From the NCBI GenBank assembly GCA_003388555.1, contig QQVD01000018.1:1274-65273 (forward strand): 64,000 nucleotides of DNA, in the 5' to 3' direction. The notes beneath the pieces were generated by a model. The model saw only the letters and a program-made list of their open reading frames with translations. It did not search any database and was not told where the DNA came from. Below are positions 3,689-14,017 of the stretch, piece after piece. This stretch comes from Acidobacteriota bacterium (lineage in GTDB: Bacteria; Acidobacteriota; Thermoanaerobaculia; Multivoradales; Multivoraceae). The first letter of the stretch is position 1; each line of letters opens with the position of its first letter. Both the position numbers and the translations under genes were made by a program.

Positions 3689-4492
3689 TCAGTCGGGCAG
3701 CGCATCGCTCGGGCCCCGGCGCCGCCACTCGAAGAGCACCACCGAGGCAGCGACGGCGGCATTGAGCGATTCGACCCCGGCGACGAGCGGGATCGTCAAG
3801 CGGTGCGTGGCCAGGCGGTTCGCCGCGGCCGAGACGCCGTGTGCCTCGGAGCCTACGACCAGGACCCCCGCCGGCGGCAGCGTCGCGCTCCACAGAGGGG
3901 TTCCGCCGTGCGCCGCCAGCGTCAGCCAGGGTGCCGTGTCGCCGACGAGCTCGCGAAGCTGCTCGGGCGCAGCGCCCCAGAGGAGGGGAAGGCGGAGCGC
4001 CGCACCGGCCGACGCTCGCACCGCCCGGGGATTGCGCCACGAGCAGCTCCCCGGCGCCGCCACCACAGCCGCGCAGCCGGAGGCGGCCGCACTACGGATC
4101 AGCGCGCCGACGTTGCCCGGGTCCTGCACCGCGTCGAGGTACAGCACCCGGCCTGCGACGGCTCGACGCTTCAACTCGGCGAGGTCAGGTCGCTGCACGC
4201 TGGCCAGGGCCAGCAAGCCGCGGGGAGAGTCGACGTCGGACCCTTCTCGCAGCAGCGCCGGCTCCACCTCGCGCACCTCGACCCCCAGCGAGCCGGCCCG
4301 TTCGAGCAGCGCGGCGAACGTCTCCCGCTGGCCTGCCTCGACGAGCAGCACCTCGAGAGCCGTGCCGCATTCGAGAGCGGTCTGCACGAGGTGCGGGCCT
4401 TCGAGCAGCACGCCATCGTCCTCCCGTCCACCTTTACTTCGGCGCAGACGGCGCGTAGCCTTGAGGATTCGATTGTCCCGACTCGAGATCAC
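3689..4492 (-). CDS. TrmH/SpoU-family RNA 2'-O-methyltransferase (RlmB-like)
   Basis: 267 aa with SpoU motifs (LDAVQDPGNVGALIRSAAASG, VVGSEAHGVS, IPLVAGVESLNAAVAASVVLFE). Confidence 0.83.
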   Translation of the reverse strand: MISSRDNRILKATRRLRRSKGGREDDGVLLEGPHLVQTALECGTALEVLLVEAGQRETFAALLERAGSLGVEVREVEPALLREGSDVDSPRGLLALASVQRPDLAELKRRAVAGRVLYLDAVQDPGNVGALIRSAAASGCAAVVAAPGSCSWRNPRAVRASAGAALRLPLLWGAAPEQLRELVGDTAPWLTLAAHGGTPLWSATLPPAGVLVVGSEAHGVSAAANRLATHRLTIPLVAGVESLNAAVAASVVLFEWRRRGPSDALPD

Positions 4493-5685: not shown

Positions 5686-6834
<1,149 letters not shown>

Positions 6835-6883: not shown

Positions 6884-8113
6884 TCAGCTCGGCGCGCTGT
6901 TCTCGCGCGGCAGCACCCGGCTGAGCACGGCCACCGCGACGGTGGCCGAGGCGAGGGAGCCGACGATGATGCCGAGCCGCTCGTCGAAGAGCAGATCGAC
7001 GCCGGTCTCCTCGAAGGCGAGCGAGCCGATGAACAGGCTCATGGTGAAGCCGATCCCGGTGAGCGCCGCGGCGCCGTAGAGCACCGGGTAGCTCATGCCG
7101 CGCGGCAGACGGGTCCATCCGGCGGCGACGGCGATCCAGCAGCACAGGAAAACCCCGATCTGCTTGCCGAAGAAGAGCCCCATGGCGATTCCCAGCGGCA
7201 CCGGGTGCAGGAGGTCGTCGAGGCCGGTGTCGGTGAGGCGCAGGCCCGCGTTGCAGAAGGCGAAGACCGGCAGCACGAAGTAGGCGACGATGGAGTGCAG
7301 GTCGTGCTCCAGGGTCTTCACCGGCGAGTTGGTCGGATCGCGCCGACAACGCATCGGCACGGTGAGGCCGAGCATCACGCCAGCCAGGGTCGCGTGCACG
7401 CCGGACTTGAGCAGCGCCGTCCACATCACCAGCCCGACGAGCAGGTACGGGCTCTGACGCACCACGCCGCGGGCGTTCATCGCCACCAGCAGCACGATGC
7501 ACCCAGCCGCGGTGAGCAGCGCCGTCAGCGAGATGTTGGCGGTGTAGAAGAAGGCGATGATCAAGATGGCGCCGACGTCGTCGAAGATCGCCAACGTGGT
7601 CACGAAGACCTTGAGGGAAGTCGGGACCCTCGATCCGAGGAGCGACAGGACGCCGAGGGCGAAGGCGATGTCGGTGGCGGCAGGGATCGCCCAGCCCTGT
7701 GCCGCGACCGGGTCGCCGTGATTGAAAGCCAGGTAGAAGCCGGCGGGGAACAACATGCCGCCGATGGCGCCGACGCCGGGCAGGATCACGTTGCTGCGCT
7801 GGGAGAGCTCGCCTTCGACGCACTCCCGCTTCAACTCGAGGCCGACGAGCAGGAAGAAGATCGCCATCAGCCCGTCGTTGACCCAGAGGAGCAGCGGCTT
7901 GTCGATCGCGAAGTCTCCCACCGACAGGCTCACCGGCGTCGACAGGAGCAGGTCGTAGAACCTCGACAGCGGCGAGTTGGCCACCATGACGGCGAGCACC
8001 GCAGCGACCATCAGCAGCACGCCGGCCGCCGACTCCTGGGCGAAGAACTGGCGCAGGAAACCCGCCGGCGAGGAGCGCGGCCTCGACTCGTGGCGGAGCG
8101 GCGGAGCGGTCAT
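6884..8113 (-). CDS. nhaA: Na+/H+ antiporter NhaA
   Basis: 409 aa polytopic membrane protein, aligns with the NhaA N-terminus (…FFAQESAAGVLLMVAAVLAVMVANSP…) and conserved core (…ATDIAFALGVLSLLGSRVP…). Confidence 0.92.
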   Translation of the reverse strand: MTAPPLRHESRPRSSPAGFLRQFFAQESAAGVLLMVAAVLAVMVANSPLSRFYDLLLSTPVSLSVGDFAIDKPLLLWVNDGLMAIFFLLVGLELKRECVEGELSQRSNVILPGVGAIGGMLFPAGFYLAFNHGDPVAAQGWAIPAATDIAFALGVLSLLGSRVPTSLKVFVTTLAIFDDVGAILIIAFFYTANISLTALLTAAGCIVLLVAMNARGVVRQSPYLLVGLVMWTALLKSGVHATLAGVMLGLTVPMRCRRDPTNSPVKTLEHDLHSIVAYFVLPVFAFCNAGLRLTDTGLDDLLHPVPLGIAMGLFFGKQIGVFLCCWIAVAAGWTRLPRGMSYPVLYGAAALTGIGFTMSLFIGSLAFEETGVDLLFDERLGIIVGSLASATVAVAVLSRVLPRENSAPS

Positions 8114-8123
8114 TTCCGCGATC

Positions 8124-10598
8124 TCACGTCTGCACTCCCAGGAACAGGTAGAGCGAAGCGGTGGAGAAGAGCACGTTGGGCGCCCAGACGGCGATCAGCG
8201 GTGGCAGGGCGCCAGCGTCGCCGAGGGTGACGAAGAAGGCGTTGAGGGCGAAGTAGATCATCCCGATCGCCAGCGCGATACCGATGCCGTAGAGGGCGCC
8301 GCGGCGCCCCAGACGGAAGGCGAAGGGGAGGGCGACGAAGGCCATGACCAGCGCCGCGCCTGGGCCGGCGAGCTTGCTGTGCAGCTGCACCCGGTACTGG
8401 GTCGTCTCCTGGCCGGCGTTCTCGAGCCGGTCGATGAAGTGCGCCAGCTCCTCTGGACCCATCTCCTCCGGCGGCTTGAGCTCGGTGTCGAAGAACTCTG
8501 GAGTCTCGGGCAGGTCGACCGGCACGGGGCCGACGAGCTCCCGCACGTCGGTCACCACCGAGCCGTCGAAGCGGCGCAGCCAACCGCCTCGGACCTGCCA
8601 CTGGCGACCGTCGTAGGCCGCCGTCTCGGCGTAGAGGCGGCCGGTGAGGGTGAGCCGCGCCAGGTCGAGCTGGAAGACGTGGAGGTGCTGCAGGGTGGCG
8701 CTCTCCTCGTCGAAGAACTGGAAGTGGTAGAGGTAACCGCCGCGACCGTACAGCCACTGCTGGTCGGCGCGCTTGAAGGTCCGGGTGTCCTGGGTGCCGC
8801 GGATGATGCTCTTGTAGTCGGCGGCGCGAGCGTTGGAGTAGGGGAGCACCGACGATTCGAGCAGCGCGCACAGCCCCGCGACAAGGAGCGCCGCCAGCAC
8901 CACCGGAATGGCGAGGCGGTAGAGACTGATCCCCGAAGCCTTCGCCGCGATCACCTCGTTGGATCTCGACAGCAGGCCGAAGGACACCAGGGTGCTGATC
9001 AGGATCACCACCGGGGCGAGCAGGTTGAAGATGTCGAACGAGAGGAACTTGTAGTACTGGAGGATCGTCTCGGTGGAGACGTCGTTCTCGAGCACCTCGT
9101 CGACCAGCTCGGTGAAGTTGGCGATCACGAAGACCAGCATGCCGGCCAGCGCGGCGAGCACGAACACGCGCGTGAACAGCCTGAGCAGATAGCGGTCGAG
9201 GACGTTGGGGAAGCGCAGCGACGGCAGCTGGAAGCGCAACCGCAGGTCGGCGTCGCGGCGCGCCGGCGGGGCAAGCAGGCTTCGTCGGCGCGGCGCCGCG
9301 GCCCGACCGGCGTCGCCGACCGCTCGATCGCTCTGGCGCTCCCGCTTCTCGCTGCGGCGCAGCTGACGCGATTCGCGCTTCTGGTACTTGCGCCGCTGCC
9401 GGTAGCGGGATCGCACCCTGGCGTGCGACCAGAACTGGTCCCGAATCCACTGGTCGAGACGGCTCAGGATCAGGCTCTTGTCACTGTTGCGCCTGGTCAG
9501 CAGGAACAACCCGGCGATCAGGAAGAGGATGTTGGGCAGCCACATCGCCAGCCAGGGAGCCAGATCGCCGCGCTCCGCGGTGCGCTCACCGGCGGTGATC
9601 AGGACCTGGTAGATCAGGATCACCACCAGCGACAAGGCGAAGCCGGACGAGCGTCCGCCGCGCCGGTTGTCGAAGCCCAGCGGCACGCCGAAGAGGCCGA
9701 GCACGATGCAGGCGGCAGGGATGGAGAACTTCTTGTGCACGTTCACCATCGCCAGGCTGCGCATGTTCTCGGGATTCGACTCGTCGGCGTGGAAGCGCAC
9801 CAGCTCCGAGAAGGTCATCGCACGCAGGGAGCGGGTCTGGGCGTGCTGCGCCCGCAGCGCCAGGGTGCCGTCGCTCTCGACCAGGGTCGAGGTGGCGAAG
9901 GTCTCGATCGAGTAGCGGTGCTGGGCTCCCAGATCGAGCTCGTGGACCGTGCCGTCCTGCAGGGTCAGGACGACCTCCGAGGCGGCCTCGTTGACGTCGA
10001 CGGTGCCGGACCTGGCGAAGGTGATGCGGCTCTGGCGGCCGAGGATCGAGTCGCCGACGAAGACGCCGGTCCAGCGCTCGCCGGCGGTTCGGTCGACGTA
10101 GAGCACCGTGCCGTCGAGCTCGTCGTAGAACCGTCCCGGTGTCACCTGGCCGACGACGTTGTTCGAGATCACCTCACGCTGCAGAGCCTGCGACCGGGTG
10201 TTGCCCCAAGGCAGCACGGTGAGCATCAACCAGATGTTGAGCGCCGTCAGCAGACCGGCCCAGGCCATCACCGGGCGGTAGAGCGCGAACAGGCTGATCC
10301 CGGCCGACCGGATGGCGACCAGTTCGCTGTCGGCCGAGAGACGGCCGACGGTGATCAGCACCGCGAACAGGAACGACATCGGGATGGTCAGCACCACGAT
10401 GTGCGGCAGGCTGAGCAGCAACAGCTCCGCCACGACACCCAGCGCGACGTCGCGCTGGATGATCATCTCGGCGAGATCGAAGAGCACGTCGGTGAGCAGG
10501 ATCATGGTGAAGACCATGAGCCCGAGCCCGAGCGGCCCGGCGATCTCGCGCATCACGTAGCGGTCGAGCACGCGGGTGACCATCGTCCCGGGGATCAT
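8124..10598 (-). CDS. Fused LptF-LptG-like LPS export permease (two YjgP/YjgQ permease domains in one 824-aa polypeptide)
   Basis: N-terminal domain starts VLDRYVMREIAGPLGLGLMVF. A second domain restarts at VLDRYLLRLFTRVFVLAAL after a highly basic linker (RYRQRRKYQKRESRQLRRSEKRERQ…). Both halves have YjgP/YjgQ topology. Confidence 0.82.
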   Translation of the reverse strand: MIPGTMVTRVLDRYVMREIAGPLGLGLMVFTMILLTDVLFDLAEMIIQRDVALGVVAELLLLSLPHIVVLTIPMSFLFAVLITVGRLSADSELVAIRSAGISLFALYRPVMAWAGLLTALNIWLMLTVLPWGNTRSQALQREVISNNVVGQVTPGRFYDELDGTVLYVDRTAGERWTGVFVGDSILGRQSRITFARSGTVDVNEAASEVVLTLQDGTVHELDLGAQHRYSIETFATSTLVESDGTLALRAQHAQTRSLRAMTFSELVRFHADESNPENMRSLAMVNVHKKFSIPAACIVLGLFGVPLGFDNRRGGRSSGFALSLVVILIYQVLITAGERTAERGDLAPWLAMWLPNILFLIAGLFLLTRRNSDKSLILSRLDQWIRDQFWSHARVRSRYRQRRKYQKRESRQLRRSEKRERQSDRAVGDAGRAAAPRRRSLLAPPARRDADLRLRFQLPSLRFPNVLDRYLLRLFTRVFVLAALAGMLVFVIANFTELVDEVLENDVSTETILQYYKFLSFDIFNLLAPVVILISTLVSFGLLSRSNEVIAAKASGISLYRLAIPVVLAALLVAGLCALLESSVLPYSNARAADYKSIIRGTQDTRTFKRADQQWLYGRGGYLYHFQFFDEESATLQHLHVFQLDLARLTLTGRLYAETAAYDGRQWQVRGGWLRRFDGSVVTDVRELVGPVPVDLPETPEFFDTELKPPEEMGPEELAHFIDRLENAGQETTQYRVQLHSKLAGPGAALVMAFVALPFAFRLGRRGALYGIGIALAIGMIYFALNAFFVTLGDAGALPPLIAVWAPNVLFSTASLYLFLGVQT

Positions 10599-10887: not shown

Positions 10888-11863
10888 TCAGCCGGCGAGG
10901 ATGCGCTGGCGCTCCTCTTCGTCGAGGCCCTTGAGCTCCTCGATGACCGATTCCAGGGCCCGGATCAGGTCACTCGGATCGACCTCCGACTGCTTGAAGC
11001 TGAGTGACAGGCTGTAGCGCTTGTCGGGAGCCCGGAAACGGAAGGTGTACGGCTTGCGGCGCGGCGGCTTGCGACGGGCCGCGGGCGCACCGTCCGCCTT
11101 CTCGGCCGCCTCGCGGCGCTGCTTGACCTCCTCGCGCAGCTCGCGCCGGTTCAGTCCGAGGGTCGAGACGCGCTCGAGCAGGCGGATCATCTCGTCCTCG
11201 TCGTCGGCCTTGAGTACCTCCAGGAGGATCGACTTCGAATGCACGTCCAGGGCCTGGACCGCTTCGCGCACCCGCTCGGGCATCTGCAGCAGCGCGAAGG
11301 ACTCGGTGACCACCACCCGCGACTTCCCCACCGCCTCGGCGATCTGCTCGTGGGTGTAGCCGTACTGGTCGGCGAGCGCCCGGTAGCCCTCGGCCTCCTC
11401 GAAGGCGGTGAGGTCCTTGCGCTGCAGGTTCTCGATCAGGGCGATCTCGAGCGCCTCCTGCTCGGTCACCTCCATCTCGATCGCCGGGATCTCCAGCAGG
11501 CCCGCCTGAAGCGACGCACGGTAGCGACGCTCGCCCGAGATGATCCGGTAGATCGCTCCGTCCTCCTCGGCGCCATCACGTCCGTCGCGGTCCTCGTCGG
11601 ACAGCCGGCGCACGAGGATCGGCTCCAGCACGCCCTTGCTGCGGATCGACGCGACCAGGTCTCCGAGGTCCCCGATCATCGAACGAGGCTGGTCGGGGTC
11701 GGGCTCGATCGAGGACAGCGACAACATCCTCCCCACCGAGACCTCGTTGCGCTGCGACAACTCGTCGACGAAGTGCTGGCTGTGCCTCATCCTCACCCGC
11801 TTCGGCAGTCCCCGTTTCTTGCTCGCGTTGCTCGAGGCCGAGACCCTTCTGGCGCTCGCTGGA

Positions 11864-11871
<8 letters not shown>
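10888..11871 (-). CDS. parB: Chromosome partitioning protein ParB/Spo0J
   Basis: 327 aa, ParB box (…GERRYRASLQAGLLEIPAIE…), HTH and C-terminal dimerisation region. Overlaps parA by 8 nt. Confidence 0.93.
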
Positions 11872-12625
<754 letters not shown>

Positions 12626-12669
12626 TGTGCGCCGGAGTGTAGACCTCGCGATGCGACCCGGTCAACGAA

Positions 12670-13369
12670 ATGTCGGCCGGCCGACCACAACATGTACTCG
12701 TGAGGAGCGCTAAGTACCACAAAATGTGGTGTTAAGGGGCCGCGAAGGCGAGACGTGTTCGTCGGCCGATGCAGTGGACGGTCCACGGCCCGGTCGGCGT
12801 CGCGCCTCCGTCGCTGCGCTCGTCCCGCTCCGATCTCGACCTCAGGCGAGCGGCCACTGTTCGGCCGGTGACATGATCTCCTGCCCAGCCCACTGAGGGG
12901 CATCGTAAAGGCGGATGTCGGCCGGCCGACATCAGGCGACGGTGCCAGGAGTACCCGGGCGAGTGGTCGCGCGGGCGAACGTGTTCTTCGGCCGATGCAG
13001 GACACGCTCCATGGCCCGGTTAGCGTCGCGCCTCCGCCGTTGCCGTGTCCTAGCATCGACCCTCGAGCTCGGGCGAGCGGCCACTGATCGGCCGGCTTCA
13101 TCGTCTCCGACCACCGGCCAGGACAGCTGTTGGTGGGCAAGGGACCAGAGCGTCGGCGCCATCGTCCGGTCAGCCGAAGGACGGCTGTCGGAGCACGAGG
13201 ACCGAGGAAGAGGGTGAGCTCCGAGCTGTGTCGGCCGGCCGACATCCCTGCAAGCGAGAGCCATCAGCTCATCGTCTCCGGCTCAGGCCCACAGCGAAGC
13301 ATCCGCTGGCCGTGGCATCTTCTCGTCGGCCGATACAGTGGTCTTCGGCGCGCGGCCACTGATCGCCCT
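12670..13369. repeat. Non-coding array of about 3 degenerate tandem repeat units (about 225-340 bp each) with GC palindromes
   Basis: Each unit carries shared blocks: GTGTTCGTCGGCCGATGCAG (12756, 12981, 13319), GGCCCGGTNRGCGTCGCGCCTCCG (12787, 13013), GGCGAGCGGCCACTGWTCGGCCGG (12845, 13073, 13349) and the palindrome TGTCGGCCGGCCGACA. The palindrome occurs at 12670-12685 (one arm mismatch), 12915-12932 (perfect 18-mer ATGTCGGCCGGCCGACAT) and 13229-13244 (perfect 16-mer). ORFs here (MSAGRH...) have A/T-rich third positions, so the region is non-coding. Confidence 0.75.
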
Positions 13370-13453
13370 TGTACCGCTGGGTCCGATCAGCGGCGCGCTC
13401 CGCGCGTCCGCCGCATCGGACCTCGTTCGGCGCGCCGAAGGCCGCGCCGAACG

Positions 13454-14017
13454 CTACATGGTGTATTTGCCGAGGTCGTCGGGATCGAGGTTCTCGAACC
13501 AGCGCTTCAACTCTTCGTCCCGCCGGGTCTCCGGCTCGGGGCGCGAGGTCAGCGCGGCGAACACCTGCTCGCCGACGAAGAGCTCGGCGTCGGCGCGCAG
13601 CGCCAAGGCGACTGCGTCGGAGGGCCGGGCGTCGACGTCGAACAGCTCGTCGCCCTGCTGCAGCCGCAGCGAGGCGTAAAAGGTGCCTTCCTCGAGCGAG
13701 TGGATGACCACCGCGATGAGCTGCACGTCGAGCGACTCGAGCAGATCCGCCATCAGGTCGTGGGTCAGCGGTCGCGGCGGCTCGGTGCCCTCGAGCTGCA
13801 TCTGGATGGCGCTCGCCTCGAAGAGGCCGATCCAGATCGGCAAGATGCGACGCCCCTCCTCGCCCGCCGAGGCGAGGTCTTCGATGCCGTCCTCCGAACC
13901 GGGCTCGTCTTCGGCCCCGCTCTCTTGGAGGATCAGGACCGGCGTGTTCTGTGCCGGATCGAGCAGCAGCGTCTTGACCTGCATCGGCACGAGACGGCCC
14001 TGGAGCGGATCTCTCAT
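13454..14017 (-). CDS. Bifunctional nuclease family protein (DUF151/BFN)
   Basis: 187 aa, BFN-like core (…VLILQESGAEDEP…RILPIWIGLFEASAI…THDLMADLLESLDVQLIAVVIHSLEEGTFYASL…). True start may be the internal Met (MQVKT, 13984). Confidence 0.75.
   Translation of the reverse strand: MRDPLQGRLVPMQVKTLLLDPAQNTPVLILQESGAEDEPGSEDGIEDLASAGEEGRRILPIWIGLFEASAIQMQLEGTEPPRPLTHDLMADLLESLDVQLIAVVIHSLEEGTFYASLRLQQGDELFDVDARPSDAVALALRADAELFVGEQVFAALTSRPEPETRRDEELKRWFENLDPDDLGKYTM

Follow-up and report, generated by a model that had tools for sequence, protein, structure and literature searches.

A candidate non-canonical parS array beside parAB in an Acidobacteriota bacterium

The parAB locus and its upstream spacer

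We analyzed 64 kb of DNA, about 70% GC, from an Acidobacteriota bacterium of the Thermoanaerobaculia (assembly GCA_003388555.1, contig QQVD01000018.1); this whole stretch is called the window here, and other stretches are referred to by L numbers. On the minus strand, the window carries in order ptsI, a hypothetical gene, miaB, a bifunctional-nuclease-domain gene (BFN), an 828-bp spacer, parA, parB and an lptF/G fusion. The spacer contains three copies of the palindrome TGTCGGCCGGCCGACA. From comparison with other genomes, we consider it very probable that the palindrome, in the form TGTCGGC-NN-GCCGACA, is the parS of a divergent clade of chromosomal ParB and that a single ancestral site was expanded to three in this spacer. 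We call the clade E-type, after the glutamate that replaces N178 of Caulobacter ParB. It is found throughout Acidobacteriota and in a few metagenome-assembled genomes (MAGs) labelled as other phyla. Written out in full, sites predicted for the clade are TGTCGGCSSGCCGACA and TGTCGGCGCGCCGACA. The main features are as follows.

10888-11871, minus strand: parB, 327 amino acids (aa), ParB_N and HTH_ParB domains, 8-nt overlap with parA
11864-12625, minus strand: parA, 253 aa, Walker-type ParA/Soj ATPase
12626-13453: non-coding spacer, 828 bp, between BFN and parA
12636-12665, minus strand: sigma-70-like parA promoter, TTGACC, 18 nt, TACACT, ending 10 nt before the ATG
12670-12687: site A, ATGTCGGCCGGCCGACCA, core 12671-12686, mismatch at the last base (C)
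12915-12932: site B, ATGTCGGCCGGCCGACAT, perfect 18-bp palindrome, core 12916-12931
13228-13245: site C, GTGTCGGCCGGCCGACAT, perfect 16-bp core 13229-13244
13454-14017, minus strand: BFN, conserved upstream neighbour of parA in most Acidobacteriota

All three copies of the palindrome lie in the spacer. An earlier note on this DNA had described a perfect 18-mer, a perfect 16-mer and a copy with a single mismatch, and these are sites B, C and A (cores 12916-12931, 13229-13244 and 12671-12686, respectively). The rest of the window had no further match to TGTCGGCCGGCCGACA at up to 2 mismatches, where shuffled sequences are expected to give 0.02. Two perfect copies and one single-mismatch copy of a 16-bp inverted repeat are what a chromosomal parS would look like in form. 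The 18-mers of the three sites share 15-17 of 18 positions, and their 40-nt flanks share 7-13 of 40; the palindromes are islands of conservation in an otherwise decayed repeat.

The same note had found no canonical parS in the window, and we detected none there at up to 3 mismatches. The palindrome agrees with the canonical consensus TGTTNCACGTGAAACA at 6-8 of 16 positions, with no match at up to 3 mismatches, and is therefore not a canonical parS. It shares 6-8 of 16 positions with the Noc-binding site (NBS), too.

The claim that some 830 bp here lack a credible open reading frame (ORF) agreed with our analysis. GC content in the spacer was flat over the three codon positions in all six frames (0.67-0.72), while third-position GC in the flanking genes was 0.88-0.91, and the longest spacer ORF (207 aa) had no Pfam match. 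The spacer ORFs had also been said to start at the ATG within the palindrome. This was true of three of the four larger ORFs but not of the fourth.

The window ParB has an intact CTP-binding box, GERRYRA, and a variant DNA-binding region (GKSRVVVTESFALL ... HSKSILL). It is 100% identical to a protein of an NCBI MAG that bears the name "Acidobacteria bacterium". Its nearest relatives are from Thermoanaerobaculia, at 61-67% identity, and the solved structures that matched it best were 7BNK and 1VZ0, the ParB proteins of M. xanthus and T. thermophilus. By its domains, the invariant GERRYRA and ENLQR boxes and these structure matches, it belongs to the chromosomal ParB family, and CTP binding is predicted. 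There is no second ParA or ParB in the window.

Linkage of the palindrome to parAB and to ParB type

The 18-mer form of the site, ATGTCGGC-SS-GCCGACAT, was sought as ATGTCGGCSSGCCGACAT in one genome per bacterial and archaeal species, and at least 120 stretches matched. Among the 120 matches listed, to which the counts in this and the next paragraph refer, about 95 were labelled Acidobacteriota, and the groups represented included Thermoanaerobaculia, Blastocatellia/Pyrinomonadaceae, Vicinamibacteria, Terriglobia/Acidoferrales, Holophagales, Aminicenantes and Chloracidobacterium. The identical 18-mer occurred in at least six acidobacterial classes, at 28-70% GC.

The site was in or beside parAB in 53 of the 120 matches, where fewer than 0.1 would be expected by chance for an operon of about 2 kb in a genome of about 5 Mb. 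These 53 operon-linked sites had three placements across species: 32 were inside parB, in a constant register (xxA TGT CGG CGC GCC GAC ATx, encoding CRRADI), 15 were at most 250 bp upstream of parA, and 6 were at or just after the end of parB. In Chloracidobacterium (L042), too, parB contains the site. Such physical linkage is that of a chromosomal parS. A site inside parB lies 1.3 kb downstream of the parA start and is therefore not a promoter operator there. Judged from these placements, a site that stays with the operon while shifting between upstream, internal and downstream positions behaves like a partition site, unlike a promoter operator.

With the relaxed motif TGTCGGCNNGCCGACA, the central dinucleotide was GC in 122 cases, CG in 22 and TG in 11, with a few others. 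Because several centres are tolerated, the site consists of two 7-bp arms and a 2-bp free spacer; of the palindrome as defined in the earlier note, the arms stand and the central two bases do not. The CG centre was found in the window and in Vicinamibacterales, and the GC centre in most others. In Vicinamibacterales there was typically a CG-centred site upstream and, in addition, a TG-centred internal site that encodes CRLADI. The central 8-mers of two common variants, GGCCGGCC and GGCGCGCC, are what we take to be the recognition sequences of FseI and AscI, a curiosity of possible use in mapping or cloning.

Some loci had more sites. L023 had three (before parA, inside parB and after parB), while the Acidoferrales stretches L101, L029, L061 and L121 had 9, 7, 4 and 3 sites, respectively, within 0.3-4.7 kb; in L101 and L121, part of the sites were in tandem non-coding units of about 150-180 bp. 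Multi-site arrays like that of the window thus arise repeatedly, in keeping with the behaviour of canonical parS clusters. The pairing also went beyond the phylum label. L031, labelled Cloacimonadota and of 28% GC, encodes an E-type ParB (GKGRTTISE...CRHADI) and has two sites, the first within parB and the second beyond it, and L038 and L074 (44-45% GC) and L039 (labelled Binatia) likewise carry an E-type ParB and the site. To judge from these genomes, the link between site and ParB is independent of base composition and taxonomy.

In viruses, the 18-mer was rare: among 2.9 million IMG/VR viral contigs only four carried it (L206-L209), with no ParA or ParB nearby. Two of the four have identical flanks. 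We rejected a phage feature because only these four contigs matched, all without ParA/ParB.

For a comparison of ParB type and site, ParB proteins were typed without site information. The query was an alignment of ParB N-terminal and helix-turn-helix (HTH) domains, cut before the CRRADI position, and 80 metagenome loci were obtained through generic ParB patterns. The recognition helix reads GKSRxxVTE...SKSLLL in the E type and GKSRxxVANxLRLL...GHARAL in the canonical type. The thresholds were at most 1 arm mismatch for the palindrome and at most 2 mismatches for canonical parS.

E-type ParB: 23 loci, 13 with the palindrome, 0 with canonical parS
Canonical ParB: 52 loci, 0 with the palindrome, 23 with canonical parS

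ParB type and the palindrome were strongly associated (Fisher p = 9e-9), and many of the loci without any site were short contigs. In E-type loci, neither a canonical parS nor any other candidate parS was found. As a control, L103, the sole actinobacterial stretch and a chance match, had five canonical parS around a canonical parAB. In a neighbour-joining tree, the 71 E-type sequences shared a clade in which there were only two other tips, one of which was E-type on inspection and one truncated. These comparisons establish that the site exists and is conserved, that it is linked to parAB, that it and canonical parS exclude each other, and that it correlates with the variant DNA-binding region. 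In L044 (3767-3782) and L028 (3330-3345), metK has sequences 1-2 mismatches from canonical parS, which encode ...ARETI...; we dismissed these as coding coincidences, which would mislead a naive parS scan.

Inside parB, the DNA itself seems to be under selection. Nine parB genes, fetched without site information, encode C-R-(R/H/L)-A-D-I, and eight of them have both 7-bp arms exact, the other having a single mismatch. At these codons, Cys was TGT in 9/9, Arg CGG in 9/9, Asp GAC in 9/9 and Ala GCC in 8/9. In clades with the site outside the gene, the peptide has drifted (VQALDV in the window; VQALGI in L001-L005 and L126) and no trace of a site remains there. This pattern argues that selection acts on the DNA rather than on the peptide at the intragenic site.

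Caulobacter ParB contacts parS through Q162, G170, K171, S172, R173, N178, G201 and R204 (PMC7383237). R173 forms a hydrogen bond with the G in the outer TGT, and both ParB and Noc have kept N178 and R204 (PMC7383237). The acidobacterial ParBs keep GKSR, have T-E in place of A177-N178 and have lost R181 to S or A (LRLL to LSL or FAL), and their GHAR motif, which holds R204, is replaced by SKS(I/L). In the palindrome, the outer TGT...ACA is retained and the inner five bases of each half-site are changed (CGGCS versus TNCAC in parS); the half-sites read TGTCGGCS in the palindrome, TGTTNCAC in parS and TATTTCCC in NBS. By analogy with the known contacts, the changes in contact residues would match those in the inner bases. 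The GERRxxA and ENLQR boxes are invariant in the E-type clade, and therefore, as far as knowledge of the family goes, an E-type ParB should still act as a loading-and-spreading clamp.

Chromosomal ParABS systems are among the closest known. The parS of B. subtilis, Caulobacter, Myxococcus and Thermus, TGTTNCACGTGAAACA, is likewise a 16-bp inverted repeat with outer TGT...ACA, it lies in or beside parAB, inside parB included, with one to many copies per locus, and its ParB shares ParB_N and HTH_ParB domains, the GERRxRA box, GKSR and a gene position downstream of a Soj-type ParA. The palindrome differs in its free centre and 7-2-7 architecture, and E-type ParB lacks N178 (E instead), R181 and GHAR (R204) and has RGLP..MRHxxHYVExL in place of RGLGRGL. 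Chromosomal parS has been described as "highly conserved ... mainly TGTTNCACGTGAAACA" (PMC7022226). Noc of Firmicutes, whose NBS is ATTTCCCGGGAAAT, offers a parallel, since there a ParB-family HTH was re-specified by a few substitutions to another 16-bp palindrome; dispersed sites in some lineages and, in one alignment, a basic residue at position 201, as in Noc (PMC7383237), add to the likeness. The NBS sequence, however, differs from our site. Noc retains N178 and R204 and has R173 changed to Q, whereas E-type ParB retains R173 and loses N178 and R204. The site and the kept R173 thus depart from the Noc-NBS pattern (NBS consensus with Q173/K179/K184/R201), and Noc is a paralogue alongside ParB and not in the ParA operon.

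Plasmid centromeres and clusters of parS provide further comparisons. In F sopC, tandem 43-bp units each have a 7-2-7 palindrome bound by SopB, and the O_B of RK2 KorB, one ParB-family protein with many sites around the replicon, is TTTAGCSGCTAAA. The window resembles these in its tandem units, each with one short free-centred palindrome, beside the partition promoter, a position that would permit autoregulation. It differs in being part of a chromosomal system that spans a phylum, in having diverged units of 245-313 bp where sopC has regular ones of 43 bp, and in that the E-type protein belongs to the chromosomal ParB lineage. Myxococcus xanthus has about two dozen clustered parS and Corynebacterium glutamicum about ten. 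Such clusters similarly place several nucleation sites within a few kb beside parAB but differ in site sequence, and the window array has only three sites while its close relatives have one.

Expansion of the array and its surroundings

The synteny rpoN-hprK-rapZ-EIIA-HPr-ptsI-...-miaB-BFN-parA-parB-lptFG is shared by six relatives, L001-L005 and L126; L126 is the closest, with a ParB 71% identical over the N-terminal and HTH domains. In these six loci, the spacer between BFN and parA is 126-154 bp long and has exactly one ATGTCGGCGCGCCGACAT each, at a distance of 34-66 bp from the start of parA. Behind this site, L005 and L126 have TTGACC, 17 nt, TA(C/G)ACT, 11 nt and ATG, and the window matches this after site A (18 nt, TACACT, 10 nt), with 5 nt between site A and the -35 hexamer of parA downstream of it. 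The flank of site C toward BFN, CGCTTGCAGG, is identical to that adjoining the single site in L001 and L004. Site C therefore retains the ancestral BFN-side flank and site A the ancestral promoter side, so that the extra material arose between them. As the relatives have a single site in a short spacer, the array, which had been put forward as a feature of the locus, is real in the window but is a lineage-specific expansion.

The expanded spacer was said to hold about three diverged repeat copies with shared blocks. These were found as blocks X and Y, 83-85% identical between copies, with partial third copies; such blocks go with each of the palindromes.

12753-12817: block X, copy 1, contains the half-site-like GTCGGCCG
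12979-13043: block X, copy 2, 85% identical to copy 1
13323-13341: block X, copy 3, truncated, 18 of 19 positions identical to copy 1
12835-12881: block Y, copy 1, contains GCGGCCACTGTTCGGCC
13062-13108: block Y, copy 2, 83% identical to copy 1, contains ATCGGCCGGC
13347-13368: block Y, copy 3, truncated
13424-13453, minus strand: 11-bp perfect hairpin directly after the BFN stop codon, without a T-run

No copies of X or Y were present elsewhere in the window. Tandem Repeats Finder reported nothing for 12000-14000, because the units are too diverged and of unequal length. The half-site-like 8-mer was 28-fold enriched in the spacer. It is not established that blocks X and Y, which carry GTCGGCCG or TCGGCCGG, are decayed sites, as this rests on short GC-rich words. 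The hairpin behind the BFN stop codon is possibly a terminator or stabiliser.

In about 330 kb of relatives' DNA, fetched without use of the palindrome, no exact copy was found away from the operon, and two degenerate matches (1-2 mismatches) were 3-5 kb downstream of parB. A gene for a DUF84 (NTPase_I-T) protein has, just upstream, a degenerate site in Thermoanaerobaculia (L004:15223-15238, 2 mismatches) and a perfect site in an Acidoferrum MAG (L020:3751), which makes this a further recurrent position. Three Thermoanaerobaculia MAGs have a second conserved position of the palindrome with shared flanks (L118:5560, L007:3463 and L009:302), about 300 bp from the RNase P RNA gene (L118:4878-5259), a gene that we did not detect in the window. 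Neither dnaA nor oriC landmarks were identified in the window, and its GC-skew trend was weak. In the complete chromosome L117, parAB and two sites lie in the first 8 kb of a record whose start is not known to be oriC.

Several features of the neighbouring genes were also observed. Three lineages have a gap of only 10-11 nt between the end of the parA -10 hexamer and the ATG (L005:9205-9246; L126:237-279; window 12626-12665, minus strand), into which no Shine-Dalgarno sequence fits; the parAB mRNA may, from its sequence, be leaderless. E-type ParBs share an N-terminal (K)RGLPxxLxMRHxxH(Y/F)V(E/D)xL where canonical ones have the ParA-interaction motif RGLGRGLxALI (window 11760-11871, ParB residues 1-37; L129:5848-6000; L137:5908-6010). 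The NCBI annotation of the window ParB starts at an internal Met (300 aa) and drops part of this peptide. On the 3' side of parB (8124-10598, minus strand) is an 824-aa LptF/LptG fusion with two LptF_LptG matches, and the fusion is kept in L001, L004 and L005. BFN is absent from six loci that keep the variant ParB and the site (L031, L038, L039, L062, L074 and L096), and we therefore rejected BFN as the binder of the palindrome.

Misfits, alternatives and a predicted mechanism

Several observations weigh against the assignment of the palindrome to E-type ParB. The correlation of ParB type with site is partly confounded by phylogeny, since most E-type ParBs are acidobacterial, and the pairing rests on correlation and structural analogy. 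The window is part of a genome, and a second, canonical ParB/parS or more palindromes are possible elsewhere. Misfits were seen in Acidoferrales (Terriglobia), where the E-type protein is named "Candidatus Acidoferrum" ParB. Four E-type parAB there (L129, L131, L137 and L210) had no site within 6-10 kb, and the Acidoferrales-type sites cluster instead at a syntenic recO-glyQ-glyS-ppdK region in six MAGs. The palindrome also occurs within a composite element, at least 150 bp long, of which each Acidoferrum genome has several copies, all beside different genes. Dispersed copies like these are unusual for a pure centromere and leave room for additional or different binders. In L049, moreover, a canonical-like GGTTTCACGTGAAACC, with a perfect canonical parS core, lies 57 bp from the palindrome, which hints that some Acidobacteriota also have a reader of canonical parS. 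These misfits in Acidoferrales and L049 leave the reading of the window unchanged.

Some details of these loci may be of use. The recO-glyQ-glyS-ppdK clusters have 2-9 sites, some in coding sequences (L101:120-4775, L029:1718-6087, L061:4582-7657, L024:945-3149, L107:4064 and L114:962-1356). From this arrangement, the centromere may have moved away from parAB in Acidoferrales; among the ParB homologues, no contig could be matched by its length to one with a site cluster. In at least 14 stretches, mostly Acidoferrales-like (L006, L014, L055, L081, L107, L108, L022, L077, L085, L092, L100, L125, L036 and L088), a conserved flank of about 25 nt, TTAAAGTAAYACTTGAAGGTTAT, adjoins the palindrome on just one of its sides. 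The genes beside it are unrelated (amylase, permease, AddA, glyS-ppdK spacer), and the flank could be a promoter or a second binding site. The composite element reads GCGAAATATCAGGGGAAAAATC-aaaa-[palindrome]-TTTCCACAGGGGGTATACCCCCCTGTTTTTGCGTATGTAGGGGAAACAAAGGAG..., with GTATGTAGGGGAAAC repeated (L020:~3700-3900, L027:~6950-7150, L087, L059, L111, L113, L053, L124, L008 and L121:~1100-1200), and looks like a dispersed element carrying a ParB-type site. In L049, a degenerate copy of the palindrome lies between GGTTTCACGTGAAACC and the palindrome in an intergenic region (6560-6760), with several GTTCGAA(T/C) repeats upstream.

These misfits bear on the alternative explanations. Rather than a ParB site, the palindrome might be an operator at which some other transcription factor, peculiar to the phylum, controls parAB along with other genes. 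In the window and in close relatives, the site comes immediately ahead of the parA -35, which would suit an operator, as would the many intergenic Acidoferrales copies beside unrelated genes, often with the one-sided flank, and the partly phylogenetic correlation with ParB type. We nevertheless consider this unlikely, because 32 of the 53 operon-linked sites among the matches listed are inside parB and 6 are at or after its end, because the site accompanies parAB even in the 28%-GC MAG labelled Cloacimonadota, and because E-type loci have no other candidate parS. The length, symmetry and outer TGT/ACA of the site are also those of parS and NBS, and the changes in ParB are at known base-contact residues. 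Quite unlikely, too, is that the variant ParB is a Noc- or KorB-like paralogue with its own sites, while a canonical ParB/parS elsewhere performs segregation. Acidoferrales sites can be dispersed (at 0.55, 0.89 and 2.99 Mb of one 3.7-Mb contig, for example), G201 is possibly replaced by K, depending on the alignment, which resembles R201 of Noc, and the canonical-like palindrome of L049 would have a place in such a scheme. However, parB and a Soj-type parA share 8 nt within an operon that is conserved, the window has no second ParA/ParB, none of the E-type loci yielded a canonical parS, the protein has intact CTPase boxes, and the homologues are named simply ParB/Spo0J partition proteins in the sources.

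The earlier note had also raised a REP/MITE-like repeat family and a family of structured small RNAs, and neither is favoured. Repeated units with shared 20-65-nt blocks, together with the Acidoferrum composite element of at least 150 bp that includes the palindrome several times per genome, could suggest selfish repeats clustered beside parAB by chance. The dispersed copies and the species or genus specificity of such families were lacking: the three palindromes and blocks X and Y are all in one spacer of the 64 kb, the relatives' DNA has no exact copy off the operon, the exact 18-mer spans classes and 28-70% GC, and the conservation of the palindromes does not extend to their immediate flanks. 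Chance clustering of selfish repeats is thus very improbable. Elements acting as RNA (BFN terminator hairpins, structured small RNAs or 5' leaders) are scarcely probable. A terminator scan did flag site A as a short GC hairpin with a T-rich tail, and many non-operon copies are flanked by AAA...TTT, but folding of the X-Y units on both strands was within the noise of shuffled sequences (z +0.35 to -1.8), and the sole Rfam matches in the window were five tRNAs, while the palindromes of 11 other loci had none. Copies within the parB coding sequence cannot be terminators, nor do terminators stay identical in sequence throughout a phylum.

A non-canonical centromere or ParB-loading array had been the leading idea of the earlier note. 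It is the reading favoured by the linkage in three placements, the exclusivity with canonical parS, the variant ParB and the retained TGT/ACA together with the residue that reads it. As far as sequence comparison can tell, the three sites most likely form a non-canonical parS array that is fused to the promoter of parAB and belongs to a re-specified site-protein pair in use across Acidobacteriota. We infer ParB binding, CTP-dependent loading and spreading, autoregulation and a benefit of three sites in the following form. ParB dimers would recognise each 16-bp site through the helix-turn-helix, bind CTP through the GERRxRA and ENLQR boxes, close into a clamp and spread to neighbouring DNA, and ParA would move the resulting partition complex. 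Three nucleation sites might give a larger or more robust complex, and site A, 5 nt upstream of the -35, might couple ParB occupancy to parAB transcription.

More speculatively, there may be an orthogonal centromere code in Acidobacteriota and a few MAGs of other phyla. A monophyletic ParB clade would have switched from TGTTNCAC to TGTCGGC half-sites by replacing contact residues conserved in ParB and Noc. In Acidoferrales, the site would have left parAB for the recO-glyQS-ppdK cluster and the dispersed composite elements, which would suggest a KorB-like genome-wide regulatory or organising role of ParB, or mobile elements hitch-hiking on the segregation machinery. This broader proposal is possible but doubtful. 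In the searchable literature, nothing relevant was found on parS in Acidobacteriota or on non-canonical parS, nor did the palindrome turn up as text.

If the assignment is right, an environmentally dominant phylum uses a different 16-bp site and a ParB with N178 and R204 replaced, although parS has been deemed almost invariant. This would explain the failure of searches for canonical parS in these genomes and would be a second natural example, after Noc, of the rewiring of ParB specificity. TGTCGGC-NN-GCCGACA would be a simple marker for partition sites in acidobacterial genomes and MAGs, and the pair could provide an orthogonal ParB/parS for locus tagging. The odd repeat region of the window would then be a three-site centromere fused to the parAB promoter.

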